DNA of 64,000 nt from a virus (IMGVR_UViG_3300031669_005140); one strand, 5' to 3'. Counted from the first letter of the stretch, positions 3,126 to 64,000 are shown. The notes: generated by a model not told the origin, from the letters alone. Numbers and translations are program-made.

Positions 3126-3374
3126 ATGACAAGCAAGGAACTAAATAGGGACGTATTAAGGCTAAATAAGCAGCTTAAAGTATATTTAGCAGACAATGAT
3201 AACAATTATACTCAATATATTGAGAACGTGGCAAAAAAAGAGTTTTTTAGGCTATACCTTGCCGATGAAAAGTTTGAGTATATGAGTAAAAAAAGTGTGT
3301 TAATTATGTTAAGGTTGAATCTACGATATAGGTTTATGGCGTTGCATAGCTTTGGCATACATATTCAACTTTAA
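3126..3374 (+). CDS. hypothetical protein
   Basis: ORF track; directly after promoter 3064. Confidence 0.75.
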   Translation: MTSKELNRDVLRLNKQLKVYLADNDNNYTQYIENVAKKEFFRLYLADEKFEYMSKKSVLIMLRLNLRYRFMALHSFGIHIQL

Positions 3375-3432
3375 TCAAATTTGCATTATTTTGGCATAAT
3401 AGTTATACAATGTTCACTAAAAATTACTGACT

Positions 3433-3771
3433 ATGATTATAGGAACCGATATTAGTATAGCCGTTTGTAAAGCAGAAGGCTATTTGATGCTAAAGTTTGA
3501 CGGGCGCAAAAAGTTTACAAAGAAAAGCCGTGTTAATGTTTTTGCATACTACCCACACTATTGTAATTTGCCTAATGAATTAATCTTGGATACAATAGTA
3601 ACCTTTGCAGAATTGGAAGAAATTTACAACGCTAAAAAGGCTGAACTTGATAGATTTGCAGAAACAAACGAGGCAGTAAATTTTGAAAATCCTACAATTT
3701 ACGACTTGCTGAACCTTGCAAGCGATATTAATGCTTATTGCGGATTAGAACAAAACATTAACCTTATCTAA
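3433..3771 (+). CDS. hypothetical protein
   Basis: ORF track; leader TACAATGTTCACTAAAAATTA shared with other genes. Confidence 0.75.
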   Translation: MIIGTDISIAVCKAEGYLMLKFDGRKKFTKKSRVNVFAYYPHYCNLPNELILDTIVTFAELEEIYNAKKAELDRFAETNEAVNFENPTIYDLLNLASDINAYCGLEQNINLI

Positions 3772-6378: not shown

Positions 6379-6600
6379 ATGGATATGGCAAAGTATTCTA
6401 GCGCAATGAAAAAAATTGTGGATTCCAACATAGGCATTATTAGTAACATGCTAACGGCACAGTGTGAAGATTTCGCAGTAGGCTTAGGTTCTAGCGTAAT
6501 GACTGAAGAGGAGTTTGCTAACGTGGCGATTGCTAAGATAAGGCAAGTAATGCTAAAGAGGCTAATTGAGCTAAACAATTTTGGAAACCATTATGACTGA
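6379..6600 (+). CDS. hypothetical protein; 3' part tandemly duplicated
   Basis: ORF track; after promoter 6324. Confidence 0.6.
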   Translation: MDMAKYSSAMKKIVDSNIGIISNMLTAQCEDFAVGLGSSVMTEEEFANVAIAKIRQVMLKRLIELNNFGNHYD

Positions 6601-6685
6601 AGAGGAGTTTGCTAACGTGGCGATTGCTAAGATAAGGCAAGTAATGCTAAAGAGGCTAATTGAGCTAAACAGTTTTGGAAACTAT
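6499..6685 (+). repeat. 94-bp tandem duplication
   Basis: ATGACTGAAGAGGAGTTTGCTAACG... starts at 6499 and again at 6593; copy 2 has a 1-nt deletion and a few substitutions. Confidence 0.9.
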
Positions 6686-6880
6686 TACATTGAATAGATA
6701 AAGCGAAAATAAATGGACAATGTTACTGTAAAATGTAACATTGTCCCATTAGTTTTCGTTATAATAATATACAATGTTCACTAAAATAGGTTTAATTAAA
6801 ATATTATAAAAACAAAATTTGACAATTAATGTAACAAAACCAAAATAATTACGTATAAGTAAATAGAAATCACAACAGCA

Positions 6881-7093
6881 ATGTTTTATATTTGTTATTA
6901 TAAACTTTTAAAATTAAACGATATGAAACCACAGATGTTATTAAAGATGAGAATTTCCGTTGATTCATCACAGAAACAAAGATATACGGAAGAAGAAATA
7001 AATTTGGAATTTACTAAAGACAACATAGAAATTGAACGGAAATTGGTTATTAGAAAAACTGATGGTGCTGTTATGGGTGAAATCTTAGTTTAA
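6881..7093 (+). CDS. cassette-borne hypothetical protein (probable start 6923)
   Basis: ORF track. Confidence 0.6.
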   Translation: MFYICYYKLLKLNDMKPQMLLKMRISVDSSQKQRYTEEEINLEFTKDNIEIERKLVIRKTDGAVMGEILV

Positions 7094-7126
7094 TTTTATT
7101 GCTTATAACGGTTTGGCTAAAGTGCG

Positions 7127-7459
7127 TTGCCATTAAAATGCACTCAACTATCAAATTATTATGACATGAGTAAAAAGAAAAAGACTTCCGAACAAGCCGA
7201 AACTGGCAATGCAACTTTAGGTGTTGTTACCCACAGTGGTTTTGATAATCCTAAAGAAAAAGCAAAATCAATGGTGAATGACATTCAATTAAAACTTGGA
7301 TTATCGAAGGATGATGCAGTGAATGTTGCCATATACGCAATTCAGACAATGATAACCTACAATCCAATATCCACAACCACTGATGATAGAGAAAGGGAAT
7401 ATCACAAGTATTGGAAAGATGTTGAAATAGAGTTGAACGTTGCTTACCATTGTGGGTAA
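7127..7459 (+). CDS. cassette-borne hypothetical protein; start lies in the attC-like loop
   Basis: ORF track; stop TAA is the TAA of the next TAAC box. Confidence 0.7.
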   Translation: MPLKCTQLSNYYDMSKKKKTSEQAETGNATLGVVTHSGFDNPKEKAKSMVNDIQLKLGLSKDDAVNVAIYAIQTMITYNPISTTTDDREREYHKYWKDVEIELNVAYHCG

Positions 7460-7477
7460 CGGTATTGATAAACGCAG

Positions 7478-7771
7478 TTGAACACTAAATTTAATTATAT
7501 GACAGAACAACAAATAACAGATGAAGCGATAAAATACAGAACTATACAATGGAGTCCAAATAAAGACGATGATATATACTTAGACTGTGAAAACTGTGAA
7601 GAAGATTTTATTGCTGGTGCTAAATGGATGCAAGAACAATTGCGTTTATCTAATGTTAGCCAGCGAAGCGAACTGTTGTTTGCTTTTATCAAAGACTGGA
7701 AAGAGGAATTTAAAGATGAAAACTGGGATTACCTTGATTTTATGGCAGAACGTTTCTTAGGCAAACAATAG
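7478..7771 (+). CDS. cassette-borne hypothetical protein
   Basis: ORF track; spans junction GTTAGC at 7655. Confidence 0.7.
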   Translation: MNTKFNYMTEQQITDEAIKYRTIQWSPNKDDDIYLDCENCEEDFIAGAKWMQEQLRLSNVSQRSELLFAFIKDWKEEFKDENWDYLDFMAERFLGKQ

Positions 7772-7821
7772 TTGCTAACGGTCGCAGATATATTCAGTTG
7801 TTTACTTAAATTGAAACACAA

Positions 7822-8028
7822 ATGATACAAAAAGAAGATTACTTAAAAGCAAAGCAGATTGTTCAAAAATATGAAAAACAATTGAATATATCTGTTGTTA
7901 GCCACCGTTCTTGGGAATGTAATTCATGTGGCTTTAAAGATTATACAGATGCTATTAGCGAAGATGAAATTCATAGCGGATTACTTGCCTGTTCAAACTG
8001 TGGTGGTGATGAATTTCATCTTGTTTGA
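7822..8028 (+). CDS. cassette-borne small Zn-ribbon-like protein
   Basis: CxxC...CxxC (CNSC, CSNC); spans junction 7897. Confidence 0.7.
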   Translation: MIQKEDYLKAKQIVQKYEKQLNISVVSHRSWECNSCGFKDYTDAISEDEIHSGLLACSNCGGDEFHLV

Positions 8029-8147
8029 ATGGTGGCTAACGGTTGGGTATATGTGTTGTACGCCTGACCACAAACTTTAAAATAAAGTACAACACTTCAT
8101 TGGCGTATAACATATATACCTTGTTATATGCAGTTAAATAATACAGT

Positions 8148-8417
8148 ATGAAAGAATTAGTTAAAAAAGTAGATTTATTTGAAAGTATGATGTTGAAATT
8201 TGCACAAGGTAAAATGAATGAAGCAAATGATGCTTTTGCAGAACGACATGGTTACGATTTAAGAGAAACAAAAAATAATGACCATCTTAAATTTTGCCGA
8301 TGGGAAATAGAGGACGAAACTCTAATTCTTTCATACTGTGAAGTAACGCCTCACGATTGTCCTTATGGAATAGACCTTGAATATAAGTTAAGTGATTTGT
8401 CGATTAATTGCATATAA
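8148..8417 (+). CDS. cassette-borne hypothetical protein
   Basis: ORF track; stop lies in the terminal TAAC box. Confidence 0.7.
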   Translation: MKELVKKVDLFESMMLKFAQGKMNEANDAFAERHGYDLRETKNNDHLKFCRWEIEDETLILSYCEVTPHDCPYGIDLEYKLSDLSINCI

Positions 8418-8551
8418 CTCGTTTATATATACACCTTTACTTAGGAACAATGATCTGAGTATCAGTAGATTATGCCATAAAATATTTAATTGTTTTATGG
8501 TAACAATGTTCTATTAGTTTCGTATAATAGGTATAACCAACACAAACTATC

Positions 8552-8827
8552 ATGACAAAAAAGCGGGTTAAAACAGAATCAAACCAGCAAACTTATGTGG
8601 GTTGGAATGGTCATAGGATTAGAATCAATGCATTCTTTTTTGACTATAAGCAAGGGTGTGGCTATAAGTATATGCTTGCTGCAAATGTAAACGATATGAG
8701 CAAAGCAGATTTGTTTAACTTGTTTTACGATTGGGTTAGTGGTAAGACAGAGAAATTGCCTTGGTTTGTTAAAAGTAGAATTGCTGAAACCGATGAAAAG
8801 CGGTTTAAAATTTCACTTAGCATGTAA
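8552..8827 (+). CDS. hypothetical protein
   Basis: ORF track; after promoter 8499. Confidence 0.75.
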   Translation: MTKKRVKTESNQQTYVGWNGHRIRINAFFFDYKQGCGYKYMLAANVNDMSKADLFNLFYDWVSGKTEKLPWFVKSRIAETDEKRFKISLSM

Positions 8828-9092
8828 CAATTAGGTCTAGTTTTCGTATTATAAGTATGTTTAATTAATAGCAATCACGATGTATGAAGTTCATGTAAAT
8901 GGTTTTATCTGGTATGCAGATGTGCGCAACAGAGTTCTTTACGAAGATAGAGAAAAAACCAGAGGCACTCCCTTTTCTTATTTAACAAAAAATGATTTGG
9001 AACAGGTTGAAAATGAACTGAGATTTCCAAGAAGTAAAAAAGAGGATGAAGTCTAAAATAGTAACCCTAGGTCGTAACTAATCTAGGGTTAT

Positions 9093-9166
9093 TTCGTATA
9101 ATGAAATAACTTTTGTCTTATATCGCTGTCGTTGTAGTTAACCAGACTGCCGACAGCGAATTTTTT
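9093..9166 (+). repeat. 74-bp block (promoter -10, short leader, terminator hairpin), copy 1
   Basis: Identical to 10239-10312; hairpin TCGCTGTCG...CGACAGCGA followed by a T-run. Confidence 0.85.
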
Positions 9167-9226
9167 ATTTAGTTGTAACATTTTCCACGTATTTTCGTAT
9201 AATAGGTATAACCAATATTTACTACA

Positions 9227-9427
9227 ATGGGAAATGAATTTAGTGGTGCTGAACTGCAACTCCGTCGTGAAATAATGGAAGCATATACTTTTTTGAGAGA
9301 GAAAAATATGACAATTCCAAGTGAAACGCTTGACTTCATTAAAGATGCTGCACTTGAAAAACTTGAGGTTGCAATTGAAAATCGAAAAAGATGCGAGGAA
9401 TATTTAGAACTTGAAGATAATAATTAA
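9227..9427 (+). CDS. hypothetical protein
   Basis: ORF track; after promoter 9174. Confidence 0.7.
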   Translation: MGNEFSGAELQLRREIMEAYTFLREKNMTIPSETLDFIKDAALEKLEVAIENRKRCEEYLELEDNN

Positions 9428-9689
9428 TACCTTAACTAAATGGAAACCGATTTATTTGACTTAATTAAAAAAAGTTCGGACAAAATTGACACCTACTTGG
9501 GTGATGTATCAACTACGGATTTTGTTGCTGATGTAAAGAGATTAGTAACACAAAACATATCTAAAACTGCCATTGAGGATACGATTAAAAGTTTACAGTC
9601 ACTAATCTCTTAATTTAAAATAACCCTAGGTTGTAACAAATCTAGGGTTATTTCGTATCATAAATATAACCAATAAACACACAACCGTT

Positions 9690-9926
9690 ATGGATGCATA
9701 CTATTATCAAATTGTCGAATTCAATGAACTTTCTCAAAGAGAAGGTGAAATTGTTGATGAAGGTATTATTAGAAGTTCTGAAGATACCATTTATCCTGGG
9801 CAAAATGCCAACAACAGCGATTTGCCTTATGAGTGTGAAGCGCACCATTTTAAGGCTGTCGGATATAGATTAAACCTTTATTCGTTTAGTATTTCGAGAG
9901 AAGAAATTTTAGACAGAGCACTTTAA
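9690..9926 (+). CDS. hypothetical protein
   Basis: ORF track; after promoter 9632. Confidence 0.7.
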   Translation: MDAYYYQIVEFNELSQREGEIVDEGIIRSSEDTIYPGQNANNSDLPYECEAHHFKAVGYRLNLYSFSISREEILDRAL

Positions 9927-10238
9927 ATTGTAACATTTTCCACGTATTTTCGTATAATAAGTATTACAAGAAAAACTTAGAACTTAAACGATTTACAATG
10001 AAAAAAATGGCTAGTATTAGAGGTTCCCCCAAGGAGTAAAACATTTAATTTATAATTTAACTTAGCCGTATATAAAAACTATGAACGCCATGCACAGAAT
10101 TAGAGATCGAACCAACTAAGCAAACTACAAATAAGAACGAAATTTAATATAGACAATTAATAATAAGACTAATCGCCAACCCCAAGATAATTATATAGTG
10201 GGTTGGCGATTAAAGTTTTGTAACAAATTATAATTTTT

Positions 10239-10312
10239 TTCGTATAATGAAATAACTTTTGTCTTATATCGCTGTCGTTGTAGTTAACCAGACTGCCGAC
10301 AGCGAATTTTTT
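10239..10312 (+). repeat. 74-bp block, copy 2
   Basis: Identical to 9093-9166. Confidence 0.85.
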
Positions 10313-10430
10313 TATTTAGTGTAACAAATTCTAATTTTTTTCGTATATTTGTATATCTATTTGTATTATTATTCTAATCGTTGTTGTGGCGTTATGAACC
10401 ACAGCAACGATTTCTTAACACAATTTTATT

Positions 10431-10640
10431 ATGGATATCGAAAGCGAACCCGAATTATCAGAATCTTTAATTGGAAAAAAGGTTAAAATGCTGGATAAGG
10501 AAGGCATTATAGTAATGACTGAAGGACTTAATGTTTATATTCATAAAGATTTTGAACTAGCAAGTAAATCACCTTGGATAACGCATAAATATGTTTATAC
10601 AATATGTGTTAGAATTGAGGATGTGGTTTTTATTGACTAG
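10431..10640 (+). CDS. hypothetical protein
   Basis: ORF track. Confidence 0.7.
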   Translation: MDIESEPELSESLIGKKVKMLDKEGIIVMTEGLNVYIHKDFELASKSPWITHKYVYTICVRIEDVVFID

Positions 10641-10686
10641 TGTAACATTATCCAATACTTTTCGTATAATATAAAAAACATAAGCC

Positions 10687-11076
10687 ATGAGAATTGAAAA
10701 TTCTAAGATAACGCTACGAATTGATTCAGATCAAACAGTAATTGAAATTTTTGATTCTGATGCGTCAACCACAATTGCAAAAGCAATATTAACACCACAG
10801 CAACTATCACAGGTATTGTCTAGGCTTGCCTATGTTGATTGTGAATGTATGGTGGGTGACTTTTCCAGAATTGGTAAGAAAATGGAAAATCAAACGTTTG
10901 AATTTGAAATAACTGGTTCAAAATCGAGCATTGATTTGAATAATGATTGCATTGATGCTTTGTTTCGTGAAGGCATGTCTGACTGGATACCAGATAACTA
11001 CTATCAATCACAGAATTCGTTTTTTAATAAAGACGACAAGCAGTATGCAAGGGTAACAATACGTAGATGGGTTTAA
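10687..11076 (+). CDS. hypothetical protein
   Basis: ORF track; after promoter 10641. Confidence 0.8.
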   Translation: MRIENSKITLRIDSDQTVIEIFDSDASTTIAKAILTPQQLSQVLSRLAYVDCECMVGDFSRIGKKMENQTFEFEITGSKSSIDLNNDCIDALFREGMSDWIPDNYYQSQNSFFNKDDKQYARVTIRRWV

Positions 11077-11091
11077 TTAAAAACTACAGTT

Positions 11092-11280
11092 ATGGCAACG
11101 TTAAGACAATTTATTGCAGAAATTGGCAATACTAAAGAGGAATTGCTTGATAAGGAAATTTTTGTTCGTGCAGAAAACGGATTATTGGTTGAACCAAAAT
11201 TACAATTCCTAGTTAAAGAATTAAGCAATTTTGACTTAGATGCAGATAACGTTGAAAAAATTATTATTGGTTATTTTTAG
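11092..11280 (+). CDS. hypothetical protein
   Basis: ORF track. Confidence 0.65.
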   Translation: MATLRQFIAEIGNTKEELLDKEIFVRAENGLLVEPKLQFLVKELSNFDLDADNVEKIIIGYF

Positions 11281-11319
11281 CGTAACCCTTTTAATTAAGA
11301 TACGTATAATAAGCATAAC

Positions 11320-11495
11320 CAAGTTGGATGCAAAAGCCAAATTTGACGTGTGGATTCTTGTTTTAACCTGCGGACTAATTGAGCAATAGACAAACGAGGA
11401 ATGTAACGAATTAAGAAATGAACGTGGTCTTGGTCTGTTTCCATTACCTCAATATCAAAATCAGAACCATCAGCAATAGATTGAAAAATTTTCAA
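11320..11495 (-). pseudogene. tnpA: internal fragment of an IS200/IS605-family Y1 transposase
   Basis: FDIEVMETDQDHVHFLIRYIPRLSIAQLVRRLKQESTRQIW carries the HUH motif and downstream helix of IS200 TnpA; both ends are missing. Confidence 0.85.
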
Positions 11496-11506
11496 ATTAC
11501 AACAAA

Positions 11507-11722
11507 ATGAAAAACGAAGCAGAAGAGATTGATAACCAACAAGGCAATGGAGTTTTACCGTGTGTTAGCGTGAGTGATGTTCATTCATTTTTAGAATGGT
11601 TAAATAATCAACAACATGATTATATGGGTGGTGAATTTCTATATGATGTGAAAGGATATTACAAACGCTTAAAACAAGGTGAAATGTTTGATTATTGGTT
11701 AGAACGTGTTCATTCACGCTAA
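11507..11722 (+). CDS. cassette-borne hypothetical protein
   Basis: ORF track; stop lies in the TAAC box. Confidence 0.7.
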   Translation: MKNEAEEIDNQQGNGVLPCVSVSDVHSFLEWLNNQQHDYMGGEFLYDVKGYYKRLKQGEMFDYWLERVHSR

Positions 11723-12046
11723 CGGCTGCGGGTTTGTTGTGAAATTTTACGAGTAAATAACTAATAATTTACGATAATGGAAAACTTAAAATATGAAATA
11801 AAAGAGGTGCTTGAGAGCTCAATGATTAAAAGCGAGGTTGCTACAAATTGTGTGCTGCTAACCAAAAGCGTTAATGAAATTGCAGAAGAAATAGTAAAAT
11901 TATGCAATAAACCCGCTGTTAGCAAACGTTTAATCCTCGAAAACTTACTTGAAAGGATGCAAGCAGTTTATCCAGAATATTACTTAGAAATAATACAAGA
12001 TGAGTTAGATGGATTAAATGGATGCTAACTCGTTTATATGTGCACC
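11543..12046 (+). mobile_element. integron-like cassette array 2 (2 cassettes; first site lacks its left arm)
   Basis: Junctions GTTAGCGTGAGTG 11564 / CATTCACGCTAAC 11711-11723 and GTTAGCA 11918 / TGCTAAC 12023-12029; terminal motif 12026-12046. Confidence 0.8.
11777..12028 (+). CDS. cassette-borne hypothetical protein
   Basis: ORF track; start in the hairpin loop, stop in the terminal TAAC box. Confidence 0.7.
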   Translation: MENLKYEIKEVLESSMIKSEVATNCVLLTKSVNEIAEEIVKLCNKPAVSKRLILENLLERMQAVYPEYYLEIIQDELDGLNGC

Positions 12047-12161
12047 TTTACCAAATGTTAACTATCACGTTATCAATTAATAGGCATATTGAAATGATAA
12101 TAGTGTAACAATTTTAAATAAAACTCGTATCATAAGTATAACCAACACAAACACACACACA

Positions 12162-12452
12162 ATGGCAAATTTCTGGTCAATTAAGGAAGAAGAGATTTTA
12201 GCAAGTCTCGTTAGCAGTTCAGCAGATGCGTACGAAGCATTTAGAATTGCATCAAAACAGTTTAACAGAACCTATGTTGCATGTCAAGCACACTGGTCGT
12301 TCATGCTGAAGCGAACAAAAAGAAAGGGTGTAATGATTGTTTGCTATCGTAAGATAATTGCAGACGGCCTCAGCAAAAAAATGATAACGGCCTACAAGTC
12401 AAAAAAACCCACTGGACTTGGAAGTAAAATGGTTCAACTTGCTTTCGGTTAA
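12162..12452 (+). CDS. hypothetical protein (possible Myb/HTH-like N-terminus)
   Basis: WSIKEEEILASLV...IASKQFNRTYVACQAHW resembles a Myb-like helix pattern; after promoter 12104. Confidence 0.6.
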   Translation: MANFWSIKEEEILASLVSSSADAYEAFRIASKQFNRTYVACQAHWSFMLKRTKRKGVMIVCYRKIIADGLSKKMITAYKSKKPTGLGSKMVQLAFG

Positions 12453-12554
12453 AACCTAACAATTAAAATGAAAATCCTGTAAGAAATTACAGGATTTTTT
12501 TGTAACAATACTATTCTAATTTCGTATAATAAGTATAACCAATAAGTATTCAAA

Positions 12555-12815
12555 ATGAAAATACTTGAATTAGATGGACTTATGTACTCTAGGGATAGTT
12601 TTGAAAACTATAGATTTAGAGCCAAGGTAATGATTGAAACATCAAATGACACATTTTTCTTGGACGTGTATACAACAGATACGAATAGAGAAAATGTTGA
12701 AAAGGTGCTGCTGGATAGAAAATCGATTATTGTTAAATCTTTAGCAATTATTTACTGGTCGTCAAAGGAGCAAGATGATGCTACAACAGAATTTATCAAT
12801 GATACTCTAAAATAG
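12555..12815 (+). CDS. hypothetical protein
   Basis: ORF track; after terminator 12471-12500 and promoter 12501. Confidence 0.75.
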   Translation: MKILELDGLMYSRDSFENYRFRAKVMIETSNDTFFLDVYTTDTNRENVEKVLLDRKSIIVKSLAIIYWSSKEQDDATTEFINDTLK

Positions 12816-12818
12816 GAA

Positions 12819-13007
12819 TTGACGATGAAAAACAAATACGATTTACTTGCTGAGATTTCAATTGCAATTTTTCTTTTTGTAATATTTGCTTGTGTAATAA
12901 CAATTACCGTAGCACTAACTCACCAAGATCAATCCGCTTTAGTAATTTTAGGCAGTATTTCATTGGGCGCATATATTGCATTCAGAATAATGAGATATGT
13001 TGAATGA
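12819..13007 (+). CDS. small membrane protein (2 TM)
   Basis: Two hydrophobic stretches; terminator 13041-13070 follows. Confidence 0.7.
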   Translation: MTMKNKYDLLAEISIAIFLFVIFACVITITVALTHQDQSALVILGSISLGAYIAFRIMRYVE

Positions 13008-13166
13008 AAAATAATATTTGGTTGTTGTTTGGTTTGCTTTTACCCCCTGCTGGTTACAGGGGGTTTTTTATTTTAAATTAGTGTAACAAATTTGAAAATT
13101 AAACGTATAATATAATTGAAATACTATAGCAATGTTTTATATTTGTTGTTATAAACAGTTTTTATT

Positions 13167-13379
13167 ATGATGATAATTTCGCAGGGAGCAACTGCTCAAT
13201 ATAATGAAAGTGGTGAAGAAGTATCTTACTGGTGCTATAAAAGAGGTGCGTGGATTACTCACAAAAGATATGAGCAGTTTTATCCATTTACCACTGAACT
13301 GCCACAACCGTATAAAAACAAACAACACCATCAAGAATCAAATCCAAAATGGCAAAATGAAAGGAAGATGTTTCTTTAA
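13167..13379 (+). CDS. cassette-borne hypothetical protein
   Basis: ORF track. Confidence 0.55.
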   Translation: MMIISQGATAQYNESGEEVSYWCYKRGAWITHKRYEQFYPFTTELPQPYKNKQHHQESNPKWQNERKMFL

Positions 13380-13504
13380 TATGTTTGCTAACGTTTTGTG
13401 TATGAGCAGTGGCACTTGTACACACTTTCAAATTAGCTACACCGCTTGTGTGCCATTGCTTATACACGGTGTTAGGCACAGGTTTTTAATTAATAATTCA
13501 AAAT

Positions 13505-13951
13505 ATGAGAAAAATACACATAAACAACGATGACAATTACGCTACACCACCCGAATTTTATAAGGCATTGGATAAGCGTTTTAAATTTGATTTTGACCCA
13601 TGCCCATATTGCGAGGGCGAAGTTATTGATGGGTTAAGCATTGAATGGGGAAGCTCAAACTTTATAAACCCGCCTTACAGCCAAAAACTAAAGGAAGAGT
13701 TTGTAAAGAAAGGAATTGAAGAAATGCAAAAAGGGAAAGTTTGTGTTTTTTTGATACCTGTAAGCACTTCGACAAAACTATTTCATAAATACATTAAGCC
13801 AAATGCAACCGAAATAGAATTTATTGAAGGCAGAATAAAGTTTGGGAAACTGGATGAAAAAGGCAACTTTTATTTACCATTAAACGCAAAAGGTAAAACC
13901 CAAAGCGGAACAAAAGATAGTATGGTAGTAGTTTTCGATGGGCGATCTTAA
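13505..13951 (+). CDS. phage Dam-like DNA N6-adenine methyltransferase (cassette-borne)
   Basis: YATPPEF...FDFDPC...FINPPYS...VFLIPVST...IEFIEGRIKF pattern of small phage N6-MTases. Confidence 0.85.
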   Translation: MRKIHINNDDNYATPPEFYKALDKRFKFDFDPCPYCEGEVIDGLSIEWGSSNFINPPYSQKLKEEFVKKGIEEMQKGKVCVFLIPVSTSTKLFHKYIKPNATEIEFIEGRIKFGKLDEKGNFYLPLNAKGKTQSGTKDSMVVVFDGRS

Positions 13952-14068
13952 ACTTGTGCCTAACGGTCGAGGCTATGAACTGAAAGCCGACACCACAAAA
14001 GATAATTAATAGTAATAACCTTAATAAAGGCTTTTTGTTTATAGCCTTTGTTAGCAACTTTTAAAATT

Positions 14069-14215
14069 ATGGAACGATTAGCAGATAAGACAGTAGAAGA
14101 ATTGAAACAAATTAGAGAAGATTATGTTAAAAAGTACATTGGTGACTTTGATAAACCAATAGATTATGCACGAACTTTATTACACTTGGATAGGTTAATA
14201 ATGGCGAAAGGGTAA
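14069..14215 (+). CDS. cassette-borne 48-aa protein
   Basis: Read manually (MERLADKTVEELKQIRE...); fills the cassette between GTTAGCAAC and GTTGCTAAC. Confidence 0.6.
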   Translation: MERLADKTVEELKQIREDYVKKYIGDFDKPIDYARTLLHLDRLIMAKG

Positions 14216-14290
14216 TAATTTTTATTGTTGCTAACGGTTGCAGGTATATTTTGATTTTTTACGGATTTGAAACACTAAAACTAAATAACA

Positions 14291-14524
14291 ATGATTAGAA
14301 CACCAGAAGAACAACATTTGCACGAACTTATAGAAAGTTACGTTGCTCCATTGCGAAGTGAAATAAAAGAACTACGCAAAGAATTAGCAGAACAGCAAGT
14401 AAAAAATTTGAATATACCTGCTGTTATGGGTGAGTTAACTTGCGATAGTTGCGGTTGCCATCCAAATGTGATATACACAACAGGTAAGGGTAGATTTTGC
14501 GAAAGGTGTATACCAGCAAGTTAA
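14291..14524 (+). CDS. cassette-borne coiled-coil plus Zn-finger protein
   Basis: CDSC...CERC after the junction at 14423. Confidence 0.7.
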   Translation: MIRTPEEQHLHELIESYVAPLRSEIKELRKELAEQQVKNLNIPAVMGELTCDSCGCHPNVIYTTGKGRFCERCIPAS

Positions 14525-14795
14525 TTACCCATAACTCGTTTATATGTGCACCTATTTACTAGGTAAGCATCTGATAATCATTAAATAAATTAGTAATGAC
14601 TATAATCAAAATGTAACAATTCTGGTTATATTTCGTATAATAGGTATAGGCTGGGTAAAACTAGGGTGCAGTAATCCATACCTGCCTTATATTCTGATTA
14701 TTTAGAATCTATTTAGATAATCGTTTTATTTAAAATATTGTAACCTTTTTAATTAAGATACGTATAATAAGTATTATTAACTAACAACAACTATT

Positions 14796-18085: not shown

Positions 18086-18224
18086 TGTACACTAAATTAA
18101 TCAGAATGAAAAGACTATTTTAATCGTGAGAAATTAAAACAATTACTAACCTAGATTGTAACATATCTAGGTTTTTTTCGTATAATGTACTACAACTAAT
18201 ATCTAATACTTTAAACTAATCAAA

Positions 18225-63689: not shown

Positions 63690-63760
63690 GGCTCAACTAT
63701 TTAGCGTTTTCAAAAAATGATAGCTTGGCTCCGTAGTATTTCATTGGTTCAATTTTTTGA

Positions 63761-64000
63761 AGTGTATATATAAACGAGTTGTAGGCAATTACCGCCTGAA
63801 ACGGTTGCTGTTATCTTTGGGGTAAAGTACTTTCATTAAGTTTTTGTGTTCTTTGTCAGTTATCGGATTAGGCGGTAACTGTTCGCTTCGCCCTACAACA
63901 CGTGGTATAGTTAAATTTTTAACCTTACTTTCTACGTGTTTTTCAAAATCCAATATCATTTCCATAATATTCATCGGAACTTCTGTTGTGCTGTATCCGT
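63761..64000 (-). mobile_element. 3' end of integron-like cassette array 4 (continues past the window end)
   Basis: Minus strand: junction GTTGTAGGG at 63899, cassette end GCCTACAAC, then terminal motif AACTCGTTTATATATACAC (63786 to 63761). Confidence 0.75.
63789..63974 (-). CDS. cassette-borne hypothetical protein
   Basis: VKNLTIPRV|VGRSEQL junction. Confidence 0.65.
   Translation of the reverse strand: MNIMEMILDFEKHVESKVKNLTIPRVVGRSEQLPPNPITDKEHKNLMKVLYPKDNSNRFRR

Follow-up and report, generated by a model that had tools for sequence, protein, structure and literature searches.

Where do mobile gene cassettes exchange when their recombination sites reach into the genes themselves? The question is raised by a 64,000-nt stretch of viral DNA (IMGVR_UViG_3300031669_005140; below, the window means this whole stretch), which carries small genes preceded by long hairpins that resemble the attC sites of integrons. 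An initial annotation of positions 7127–14524 took the GTT triplet on the 3′ side of each hairpin as the crossover point, so that each rearrangement would fuse the N-terminus encoded in one cassette's hairpin loop to the C-terminal domain of whichever cassette follows. We find that the principal exchange point is not this in-frame GTT but TAA|C in the R″ box of the site, just after the stop codon of the previous gene. The GTT, the inverse core of the site, is a real second exchange point that is used about 4-fold less. The new part is a documented in-frame exchange of N- and C-terminal protein segments at this second point.

Hairpin sites and cassette arrays

We scored every AAC…GTT pair in the 64 kb by duplex energy, with the flanking 26 nt paired. 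Eight complete sites rank top on the plus strand, with energies between −14.7 and −18.6 kcal/mol and AAC/GTT positions of 7107/7226, 7458/7655, 7777/7897, 8038/8123, 11721/11918, 13390/13471, 13962/14050 and 14233/14423. They fold as attC sites do, with R″/R′ and L″/L′ boxes, an unpaired spacer and a variable loop, in the order x′-YTAAC, 5-nt spacer, stem of about 19 nt, loop of about 40–230 nt, returning stem, 2–3 nt and GTTAR-x. The stems of related sites carry compensatory changes (read by eye). The cassettes are discrete mobile units with a crossover inside a conserved triplet and mutually complementary ends, matching at 10–11 of 12 positions for most cassettes.

The eight sites belong to three plus-strand arrays and qualify as integrase-less attC clusters (CALINs; two or more attC sites in a few kb of DNA without an integrase). 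A fourth recombinase-less array lies on the minus strand, where its site is truncated by the window end. All four arrays finish in …YTAAC|TCGTTTATAT, an attI-like terminal motif, with no complete hairpin at the end. A cassette-specific arm plus YTAAC, followed directly by the conserved TCGTTTATATRTRCAC, occurs in 4 copies compared to 0.02 expected. The arrays contain the following features.

7104–7232, plus strand: attC-like hairpin 1, with R″ TATAAC (AAC 7107–7109), L″, loop with start codon, L′ and R′ GTTACC (GTT 7226); −16.8 kcal/mol
7166–7459, plus strand: loop-start gene (ATG 7166, with TTG 7127 also in frame); Val at 7226 in phase 0; stop codon TAA inside the next R″
7455–7661, plus strand: attC-like hairpin 2 (AAC 7458, GTT 7655; span 197 nt; duplex scan)
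7499–7771, plus strand: gene with a 53-codon N-segment in the loop and C-segment SQRSELLFAFIKDW…; both segments found elsewhere with other partners
7774–7903, plus strand: attC-like hairpin 3 (AAC 7777, GTT 7897; duplex scan)
7822–8028, plus strand: loop-start gene, helix plus CxxC…CxxC C-segment
8035–8129, plus strand: short-loop attC-like hairpin 4 (AAC 8038, GTT 8123); loop without start codon, next gene with its own ATG (8148–8417)
8416–8436, plus strand: array end AAC|TCGTTTATATATACACCT, attI-like terminal motif, directly 3′ of the last cassette's R″
11507–11722, plus strand: gene with Val (GTT 11564) in an L′-R′ half-site without upstream 5′ arm; stop codon TAA in R″
11718–11924, plus strand: attC-like hairpin (AAC 11721, GTT 11918; duplex scan)
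11777–12028, plus strand: loop-start gene; N- and C-segments each with other partners elsewhere
12027–12047, plus strand: array end, attI-like terminal motif (motif count)
13387–13477, plus strand: short-loop attC-like hairpin (AAC 13390, GTT 13471), then a Dam-type DNA methyltransferase cassette gene (13505–13951)
13959–14056, plus strand: short-loop attC-like hairpin (AAC 13962, GTT 14050; duplex scan)
14230–14429, plus strand: attC-like hairpin carrying a 45-codon N-segment (AAC 14233, GTT 14423; duplex scan)
14291–14524, plus strand: gene with N-terminal helix, L′/R′-coded linker (NLNIPAV) and Cys-rich C-segment (MGELTCDSCGC…)
14533–14553, plus strand: array end, attI-like terminal motif; alternative last cassette in assembly run X1
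63760–63974, minus strand: last cassette of the fourth array; open reading frame (ORF) from 63974, Val GTT 63899–63897, terminal motif 63780–63760

The principal exchange point

Units that have moved recently are bordered at TAA|C, in the arm opposite to the GTT. The closest relatives of the window are two IMG/VR contigs that share a single metagenome as source, G1 (202.8 kb) and G2 (50.4 kb). In G2, a 297-bp unit is present twice with 100% identity (3306–3602 and, on the minus strand, 14032–13736). The flanks of the two copies differ right from the TAAC|…TAAC| borders outward, and the unit contains a hairpin, the loop ATG and an entire 80-codon gene through the TAA inside R″. A cassette common to G1 and G2 has identical TAAC| borders. 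The P0111 cassette, which resembles the window's 14233 site in both hairpin and N-segment, occurs in four contexts, with AAC| at both sides each time, and the window's 13962 hairpin is 94% identical in a strain variant (locus L124), where it directly follows a different …TATAAC|.

Public assemblies of four soil or wastewater runs, aligned to the region, gave the same border. A contig of run X4 joins 7105 to 8037, a deletion of three cassettes from AAC to AAC, and run contigs diverge from the window at 7457, 8413, 14530, 13961, 7781 and 13389, which are all AAC positions; a run X1 contig diverges upstream of 7457. One further joint, 7677 to 8405 in run X1, most likely represents the minus-strand array in two pieces rather than a deletion. 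We also took all ends of homology blocks (at least 85% identity over at least 60 nt) among 26 phage array loci. AAC| accounts for 52 of the 166 ends (chance 1.8%) and GTT for 13 (chance 1.5%), with 101 elsewhere; ends at AAC| are about 4-fold as frequent as ends at GTT, and both are far above chance. Because the crossover lies at TAA|C, hairpin, N-segment and gene body normally move as one unit.

Alternatively, GTT could be the regular crossover, a cassette consisting of a gene body plus the next hairpin, so that the upstream N-segment would become fused to the following body whenever a cassette is excised or inserted. Such a mechanism would fit the switch, precisely at GTTA, from near-identical N-segments to unrelated bodies, as well as a strong bias in codon phase (both described below). 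However, a crossover at GTT would place a complete hairpin before the array boundary, whereas the window arrays end at R″. Body and downstream hairpin are never kept together: the C2 body precedes four different hairpins, and the MGELTC body precedes the attI-like motif or differing hairpins. Identical copies instead retain hairpin plus body, block ends favor AAC| over GTT by 52 to 13, and the polarity of bacterial sites with respect to recombinase and attI-like motif puts the crossover at AA|C. A regular crossover at GTT is therefore largely refuted, and we regard it as improbable; the proposal that each rearrangement creates a new fusion was not supported.

In-frame exchange of N- and C-terminal segments

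The swaps at the Val that were initially predicted do occur among natural relatives, but chimeras are not produced by every cassette move. For ORFs 14291, 7499 and 11777, the same N-segment is found with different C-segments, and the reverse, with in-frame breaks at the Val; homologs thus do not always keep the same pairing. ORF 14291 has 43 full-length relatives. Its N-segment (residues 1–45, 79–96% identical) is followed by other sequence in at least 15 further relatives, with similarity stopping at or just after Val45, and is joined to at least eight unrelated C-segments, most of them Cys-rich. In reverse, its C-segment MGELTCDSCGCHPNVIYTT.KGRFCERCKPAS (MGELTC…) is preceded by dozens of unrelated N-segments, and the only invariant columns in an alignment of 24 relatives are M1, V45 and positions of the C-segment. 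Both classes of relatives, N-sharing and C-sharing, are also present for ORF 7499 (Val53) and ORF 11777 (Val48).

The same breaks are visible in the DNA. Positions 14233–14426 are 97% identical to the P0111 cassette, and identity ends at GTTA^: from ATG to GTT, 4 of 135 nt differ, and past GTTA nothing is common. With four differences in 135 nt, two synonymous and two not, the ratio of non-synonymous to synonymous rates (dN/dS) of this N-segment is uninformative. Conversely, the body at 7655–7779 is 90–95% identical in loci L206, L207, L210 and L211 from GTT to AAC only, while the upstream arms are unrelated. Because such GTT-to-AAC blocks, with inverted arms of 12–13 nt, recur behind unrelated hairpins, gene bodies constitute a second exchange unit.

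The inverted arms at both sides of each body raise a shufflon-like alternative, in which GTTAG-x…x′-CTAAC would invert the body and bring in an alternative C-terminus from the other strand. A few bodies (11507, 11721 and G1-1900) do have an open frame when inverted, but this frame stays open to near the end in only 3–4 of 16 bodies, and relatives give plus-strand matches only, with no inverted copies. We therefore rejected invertible coding segments, which are very improbable here.

In a structure of ORF 14291 predicted by AlphaFold2 (mean pLDDT 81), a long helix (residues 5–39) is followed by a low-confidence stretch (40–50) and a small beta-hairpin domain with four Cys. The low-confidence stretch includes the residues coded by L′/R′ (NLNIPAV). 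Swaps may thus be tolerated because a flexible, site-encoded linker separates two independent parts in the predicted model.

Two further kinds of pattern were observed around the exchange points. A shared stretch stands right after the Val at window positions 7655–7680 and 63899–63875 (minus strand) and in P0129, P0152 and P0156 (..CGAAGCGAAC[T/A]GTT.., peptide (Q/G)RSE(L/Q)L, with an AAC-N-GTT pair); it may be a second hinge or a scar left by an earlier site. Short-loop cassettes can keep their hairpin, R′, the 5′ untranslated region with its ATG and the 3′ end (TAATAATTTTTATTGTT..TAAC) while the ORF between them is replaced, as at window positions 14069–14215, in L124 (reverse complement, about 830–1080) and in run X3, which joins 14073 to 14212. 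Such ORF replacement, which breaks at the start codon and close to the stop codon, adds another kind of exchange.

Genes that start in hairpin loops and their codon phase

Seven ORFs of the window begin in, or just before, an attC-like loop, and the long loops hold the start codon and the first 19–59 codons. In 7 of 7, the GTT is an in-frame Val codon (at 7226, 7655, 7897, 11564, 11918, 14423 and, on the minus strand, 63899), with offsets from the ORF start of 99, 177, 75, 57, 141, 132 and 75 nt, all multiples of three, and with the junction peptides ATLGVV|TH, RLSNV|SQ, NISVV|SH, VLPCV|SV, KPAV|SK, NIPAV|MG and TIPRV|VG. The short-loop sites (AAC at 8038, 13390 and 13962) precede genes with their own ATG at 8148, 13505 and 14069. 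The coordinates, offsets and junction peptides of the initial annotation are all reproduced. ORFs 7127 and 7478 are listed with TTG starts, and their in-frame ATGs (7166 and 7499) remain within the loops; the site of the 11507 gene is reduced to its 3′ half (L′-R′).

In the five complete long-loop sites, phase 0 is open for 87–183 nt upstream of the GTT, compared to only 1–71 nt for phases 1 and 2. Finding 7 of 7 window genes in one phase has a probability of 0.0005 at one third per site, or 0.008 when two phases are allowed, GT-TAG being a stop. The claim that the phase is always 0 thus holds within the window, but not beyond it. We collected 37 distinct genes that start in loops of the window, G1, G2 and 16 additional loci. 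Of these, 30 have the GTT in phase 0, and phases 1 and 2 account for five and two genes, respectively, which is far from random (P = 3 × 10−9 for 30 of 37 against one third). Because 7 of the 37 genes are in phases 1 or 2, phase 0 is a bias with classes rather than a law.

Phase 1 is impossible for GTTAG, because a TAG stop results, and each of the five phase-1 genes carries GTTAT instead, translated as C|Y. Four of these five resemble DNA methyltransferases (three in Pfam N6_N4_Mtase gene calls and one with a PPY motif), and two phase-1 genes combine a similar N-segment with different bodies. In other metagenomic phages (L194, L196 and L197), arrays with this type of site carry series of as many as three or four consecutive DNA methyltransferase genes, whose first 17–27 codons lie in the hairpin loop and whose conserved catalytic domain follows directly after the junction.

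A different explanation is that the loop ORFs are untranslated and that the real genes start downstream, for example at the ATG in GTT-ATG-GGT, the open frame being a by-product. The MGELTC body has an ATG right after the Val, a 48-aa version of it exists (P0086), and both gene callers and databases are biased toward long ORFs. Several bodies, however, have no start codon near their 5′ end (e.g. SQRSELLFAF… and SHRSWECNSCGF…), and methyltransferase bodies start right at the conserved domain. Furthermore, 19–59 codons remain open in DNA of 31% G+C where the other phases close within 1–71 nt, dozens of unrelated N-segments are all open, and it is the short-loop sites that are always followed by a separate ATG. 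An untranslated loop is accordingly an improbable explanation.

Site polarity and a bacterial recombinase

The attI-like terminal motif is frequent in Bacteroidota genomes and metagenomes. A metagenome scan with the 18-nt motif gave many chance matches in unrelated DNA, and loci were kept only if hairpin sites were present. In four of five Bacteroidota genomes, …CATATAAAC(N)|GTT stands about 70–150 nt after a tyrosine recombinase gene and is followed by gene-then-hairpin cassettes, where it could be a primary attI site; the window has four copies of the motif and no recombinase gene. The recombinase, chosen in each genome as the best match to the integron-integrase model, is 372–383 aa long and scores 185–200 bits on TIGR02249 (cut-off 265), with a match that is split at model positions of about 178–238, the region of the extra domain in IntI. 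Among solved structures, the recombinase is closest to XerA and next to IntI4, the latter in two pieces. It also resembles XerC and XerD; in Xer/dif-type modules (IMEX, pdif), 28-bp XerC-spacer-XerD sites delimit modules that rely on the chromosome-dimer resolvase of the host.

Locus L185 (a Bacteroidales chromosome, G004:C1:410395-413922), together with L189, L188 and L184, combines a recombinase that is extended N-terminally by about 100 aa, the attI-like motif and classical gene-hairpin cassettes. These loci are an integron-like system without the IntI-specific domain, and in the literature searched we found no description of such a system.

With the motif as reference, the cassette ORFs of bacteria and the genes of the phage occupy opposite strands. 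The polarity of the sites therefore places the crossover at AA|C, followed by GGYT.., in both phage and bacteria. The bacterial arrays have the classical orientation, with the gene before attC and read away from attI, whereas the phage genes are read toward the attI-like motif and have the site upstream, at the 5′ end. Each phage gene has its own 5′ hairpin because it is antisense to the bacterial cassette genes. This difference in orientation also explains why phage loops contain gene starts and classical attC loops do not.

A proposed mechanism and its weak points

Overall, the best explanation is that these are antisense integron-like cassettes with a main crossover at TAA|C and a secondary exchange point at GTT, which we consider slightly more probable than all other accounts combined. 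On the gene strand, a cassette consists of C| with the spacer and 5′ arm L″, the loop, L′ and R′ (GTTAG or GTTAT plus about 8 cassette-specific nt), the gene body, and the complementary arm with R″ (…YTAA). In about two thirds of long-loop sites, the loop carries the start codon and an N-segment of 15–60 codons, often a helix, and the 3′ arm would be translated as a flexible linker ending in Val. Hairpin, N-segment and body move together between arrays and would also enter the attI-like AAC|TCGTTTATATRTGCACC. Gene bodies with their 12–13-nt inverted arms have also been re-joined at GTT to other hairpins, which gives protein families that combine one N-segment with many C-segments, or one C-segment with many N-segments.

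The exchange at GTT would most likely be carried out by the same recombinase, probably host-encoded, which would use either the opposite strand in its folded form or the inverse core. A recombinase at GTT is favored by the precision of the breaks, although only 4–5 nt are shared, and by the retained pairing of the arms. A common codon phase would keep swaps productive, with phase 0 (V|S/M) in about 80% of genes and phase 1 (C|Y) in a methyltransferase-rich minority. A more tentative extension, to which we give clearly less credence, is that the sites double as an in-frame domain-shuffling device, in which the recombinase also uses the GTT inverse core on the opposite strand and the V|S and C|Y phase classes act as compatibility groups. 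Combinatorial two-part small proteins would result, each with an N-terminal helix, an arm-encoded linker and a variable Cys-rich or enzymatic C-domain, and probably serving host takeover or counter-defence.

The same re-assortment could arise without a recombinase at GTT. Neighboring or co-infecting arrays might undergo homologous recombination, slippage during replication or copy-choice at their short conserved L′-R′ arms, or the process by which hairpins become attached to genes ('cassette genesis') might be responsible. The phase bias would then reflect descent from a few leader-bearing hairpin lineages together with selection against stops (GT-TAG) and hydrophobic readings. For many C-sharing relatives, similarity begins at the start of the L′ arm (query residues 31–36) and not at the Val. 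Hairpin families attached to unrelated genes are normal in sedentary integrons. In the G1-889/G2-3307 pair, compensatory stem changes alter the encoded peptide, so that DNA pairing and not the peptide is conserved. Conversely, body-only blocks start precisely at GTT behind dissimilar upstream arms with 4–5 nt shared, bodies keep paired inverted arms after exchange, and the phase-1 class also re-assorts within itself. Together, these non-recombinase accounts of re-assortment and phase bias are possible without being probable, and for the GTT exchange we consider an enzymatic route somewhat more likely than a homology-driven or copy-choice one.

Several observations weigh against the antisense-cassette explanation with a recombinase acting at both points. 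The GTT exchange need not be made by an enzyme. Mosaic breakpoints are also present inside loops, at start codons and near 3′ ends or stop codons. The 7499 gene appears to have recombined about 10–20 nt downstream of the GTT, and its hybrid, GTT-proximal arm pairs poorly with its own 3′ arm (7 of 13 positions); homology-driven or copy-choice events must therefore contribute. The recombinase itself can only be inferred, because none was found in the window, G1 or G2: G1 and G2 have no match to PF00589 or TIGR02249, and tblastn with the bacterial recombinases found none in the window, G1 or G2, so that no IntI stands beside an array. Translation from the loop ATGs is suggested by open frames and the absence of other starts. 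By equal criteria, loop-start ORFs occur at 10 of 41 long sites in bacterial-type arrays, compared to about 37 of 56 in phage arrays; since bacterial-type sites pass too, antisense openness could make up part of the signal. Finally, the protein database contains called ORFs only, which favors long open N-extensions.

Integron sites are usually treated as non-coding punctuation behind genes, whereas the phage sites stand before genes and encode the start, N-segment and linker. Their re-assortment in frame with many protein bodies in natural relatives would be a cassette-based route to phage protein modularity, and it raises the testable question of whether a recombinase uses the inverse core. 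The analysis also corrects a tempting misreading, that each cassette move yields a chimera, and links the phage arrays to an Xer-like variant of integrons in Bacteroidota that has been little described.

Genomic setting

The window belongs to the early region of a giant Bacteroidota phage, and its proteins are assigned in the protein database to a 152,794-bp contig. It has 31% G+C, its genes lack Shine-Dalgarno sequences, promoters of the form TGTAACA-N16-CGTATAAT are repeated many times, and it encodes rIIA, rIIB, a phage sigma factor, a Holliday-junction resolvase and Cas6/8/7/5/3. A megablast search of GenBank phages with the region gave zero matches, and just 5–7% of sampled words were present in candidate RNA runs.

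The left ends of arrays at 6822–6905 and 13074–13161 are half-sites, an ECF-type promoter followed by L′-R′ (GCAATGTTTTATATTTGTTGTTATAAAC). In G1 (190282–190388; L002 3937–4045), the same promoter lies within the loop of a complete hairpin; for this reason, the window's array starts resemble hairpins truncated at a promoter copy. The loops at window position 8038, G1 190025, G1 191403 and G2 1037, along with most long loops, share the motif ACAAACTT(T)AAAAT.., with or without a following start codon, which may be a translation-initiation region for Shine-Dalgarno-less genes or a protein-binding site. Stem-loops TAACCCTAGG…CTAGGGTTA at 9062–9105, 9621–9664 and 18146–18189 have a −35-like GTAACA in the loop and TTTCGTATAAT directly after; they are terminator-plus-promoter units reminiscent of T4-type PeSL elements. 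A 94-nt tandem duplication (6499–6686, 98% identical) lies within a region of small ORFs.

Comparison with known systems

Integrase-less attC clusters in phages have been described as arrays of at least two predicted attC sites, with an IntI1 recombination assay (Qi et al. 2023, Front Microbiol, PMC9892861). According to passages of that paper, recombinase-less attC arrays occur in virulent phages, including a phage of Bacteroidota (Polaribacter), often with DNA methyltransferases, as in the arrays studied here; the passages searched contain no mention of loop-starting genes, translated arms or N/C exchange.

As in integrons, and especially sedentary chromosomal ones, the sites are imperfect hairpins with R″/R′ (..YTAAC/GTTAR..) and L″/L′ boxes, an unpaired spacer and a variable loop. 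Also shared are the complementarity between cassette ends, the crossover inside a conserved AAC/GTT triplet and families of similar sites attached to unrelated genes. In the bacterial relatives, an attI-like, putatively primary site stands beside a tyrosine recombinase gene. Unlike integrons, the recombinase of the bacterial relatives is Xer/XerA-like without the IntI-specific insertion, the R arms are 12–13 nt long, the phage genes are antisense to site polarity with a partly coding site at the gene's 5′ end, and no recombinase was seen in the phage DNA.

PeSL cassettes of T4-type phages undergo homology-driven shuffling between promoter/terminator elements. They share with the window cassettes the small early genes, the hyperplastic regions of large phages and shuffling at short conserved regulatory elements; unlike the window cassettes, they have neither attC-like R/L box architecture nor an attI-like site. 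In the R64 shufflon (Rci) and phase-variable hsdS loci, segments invert inside one locus. There, too, recombination sites in frame within coding sequence re-assort N- and C-terminal parts, but inversion is unsupported in the phage arrays.

Some class 1 integron cassettes without their own start codon, such as aacA4/aac(6′)-Ib variants, are translated from the upstream attI1 or the preceding cassette. Their ORF is likewise open across the junction, with an N-terminus set by the upstream sequence. In those cassettes, however, this is an occasional accident at the true crossover, whereas in the phage cassettes the loop itself carries the start and an entire N-segment, and the triplet that is read in frame is the inverse core.

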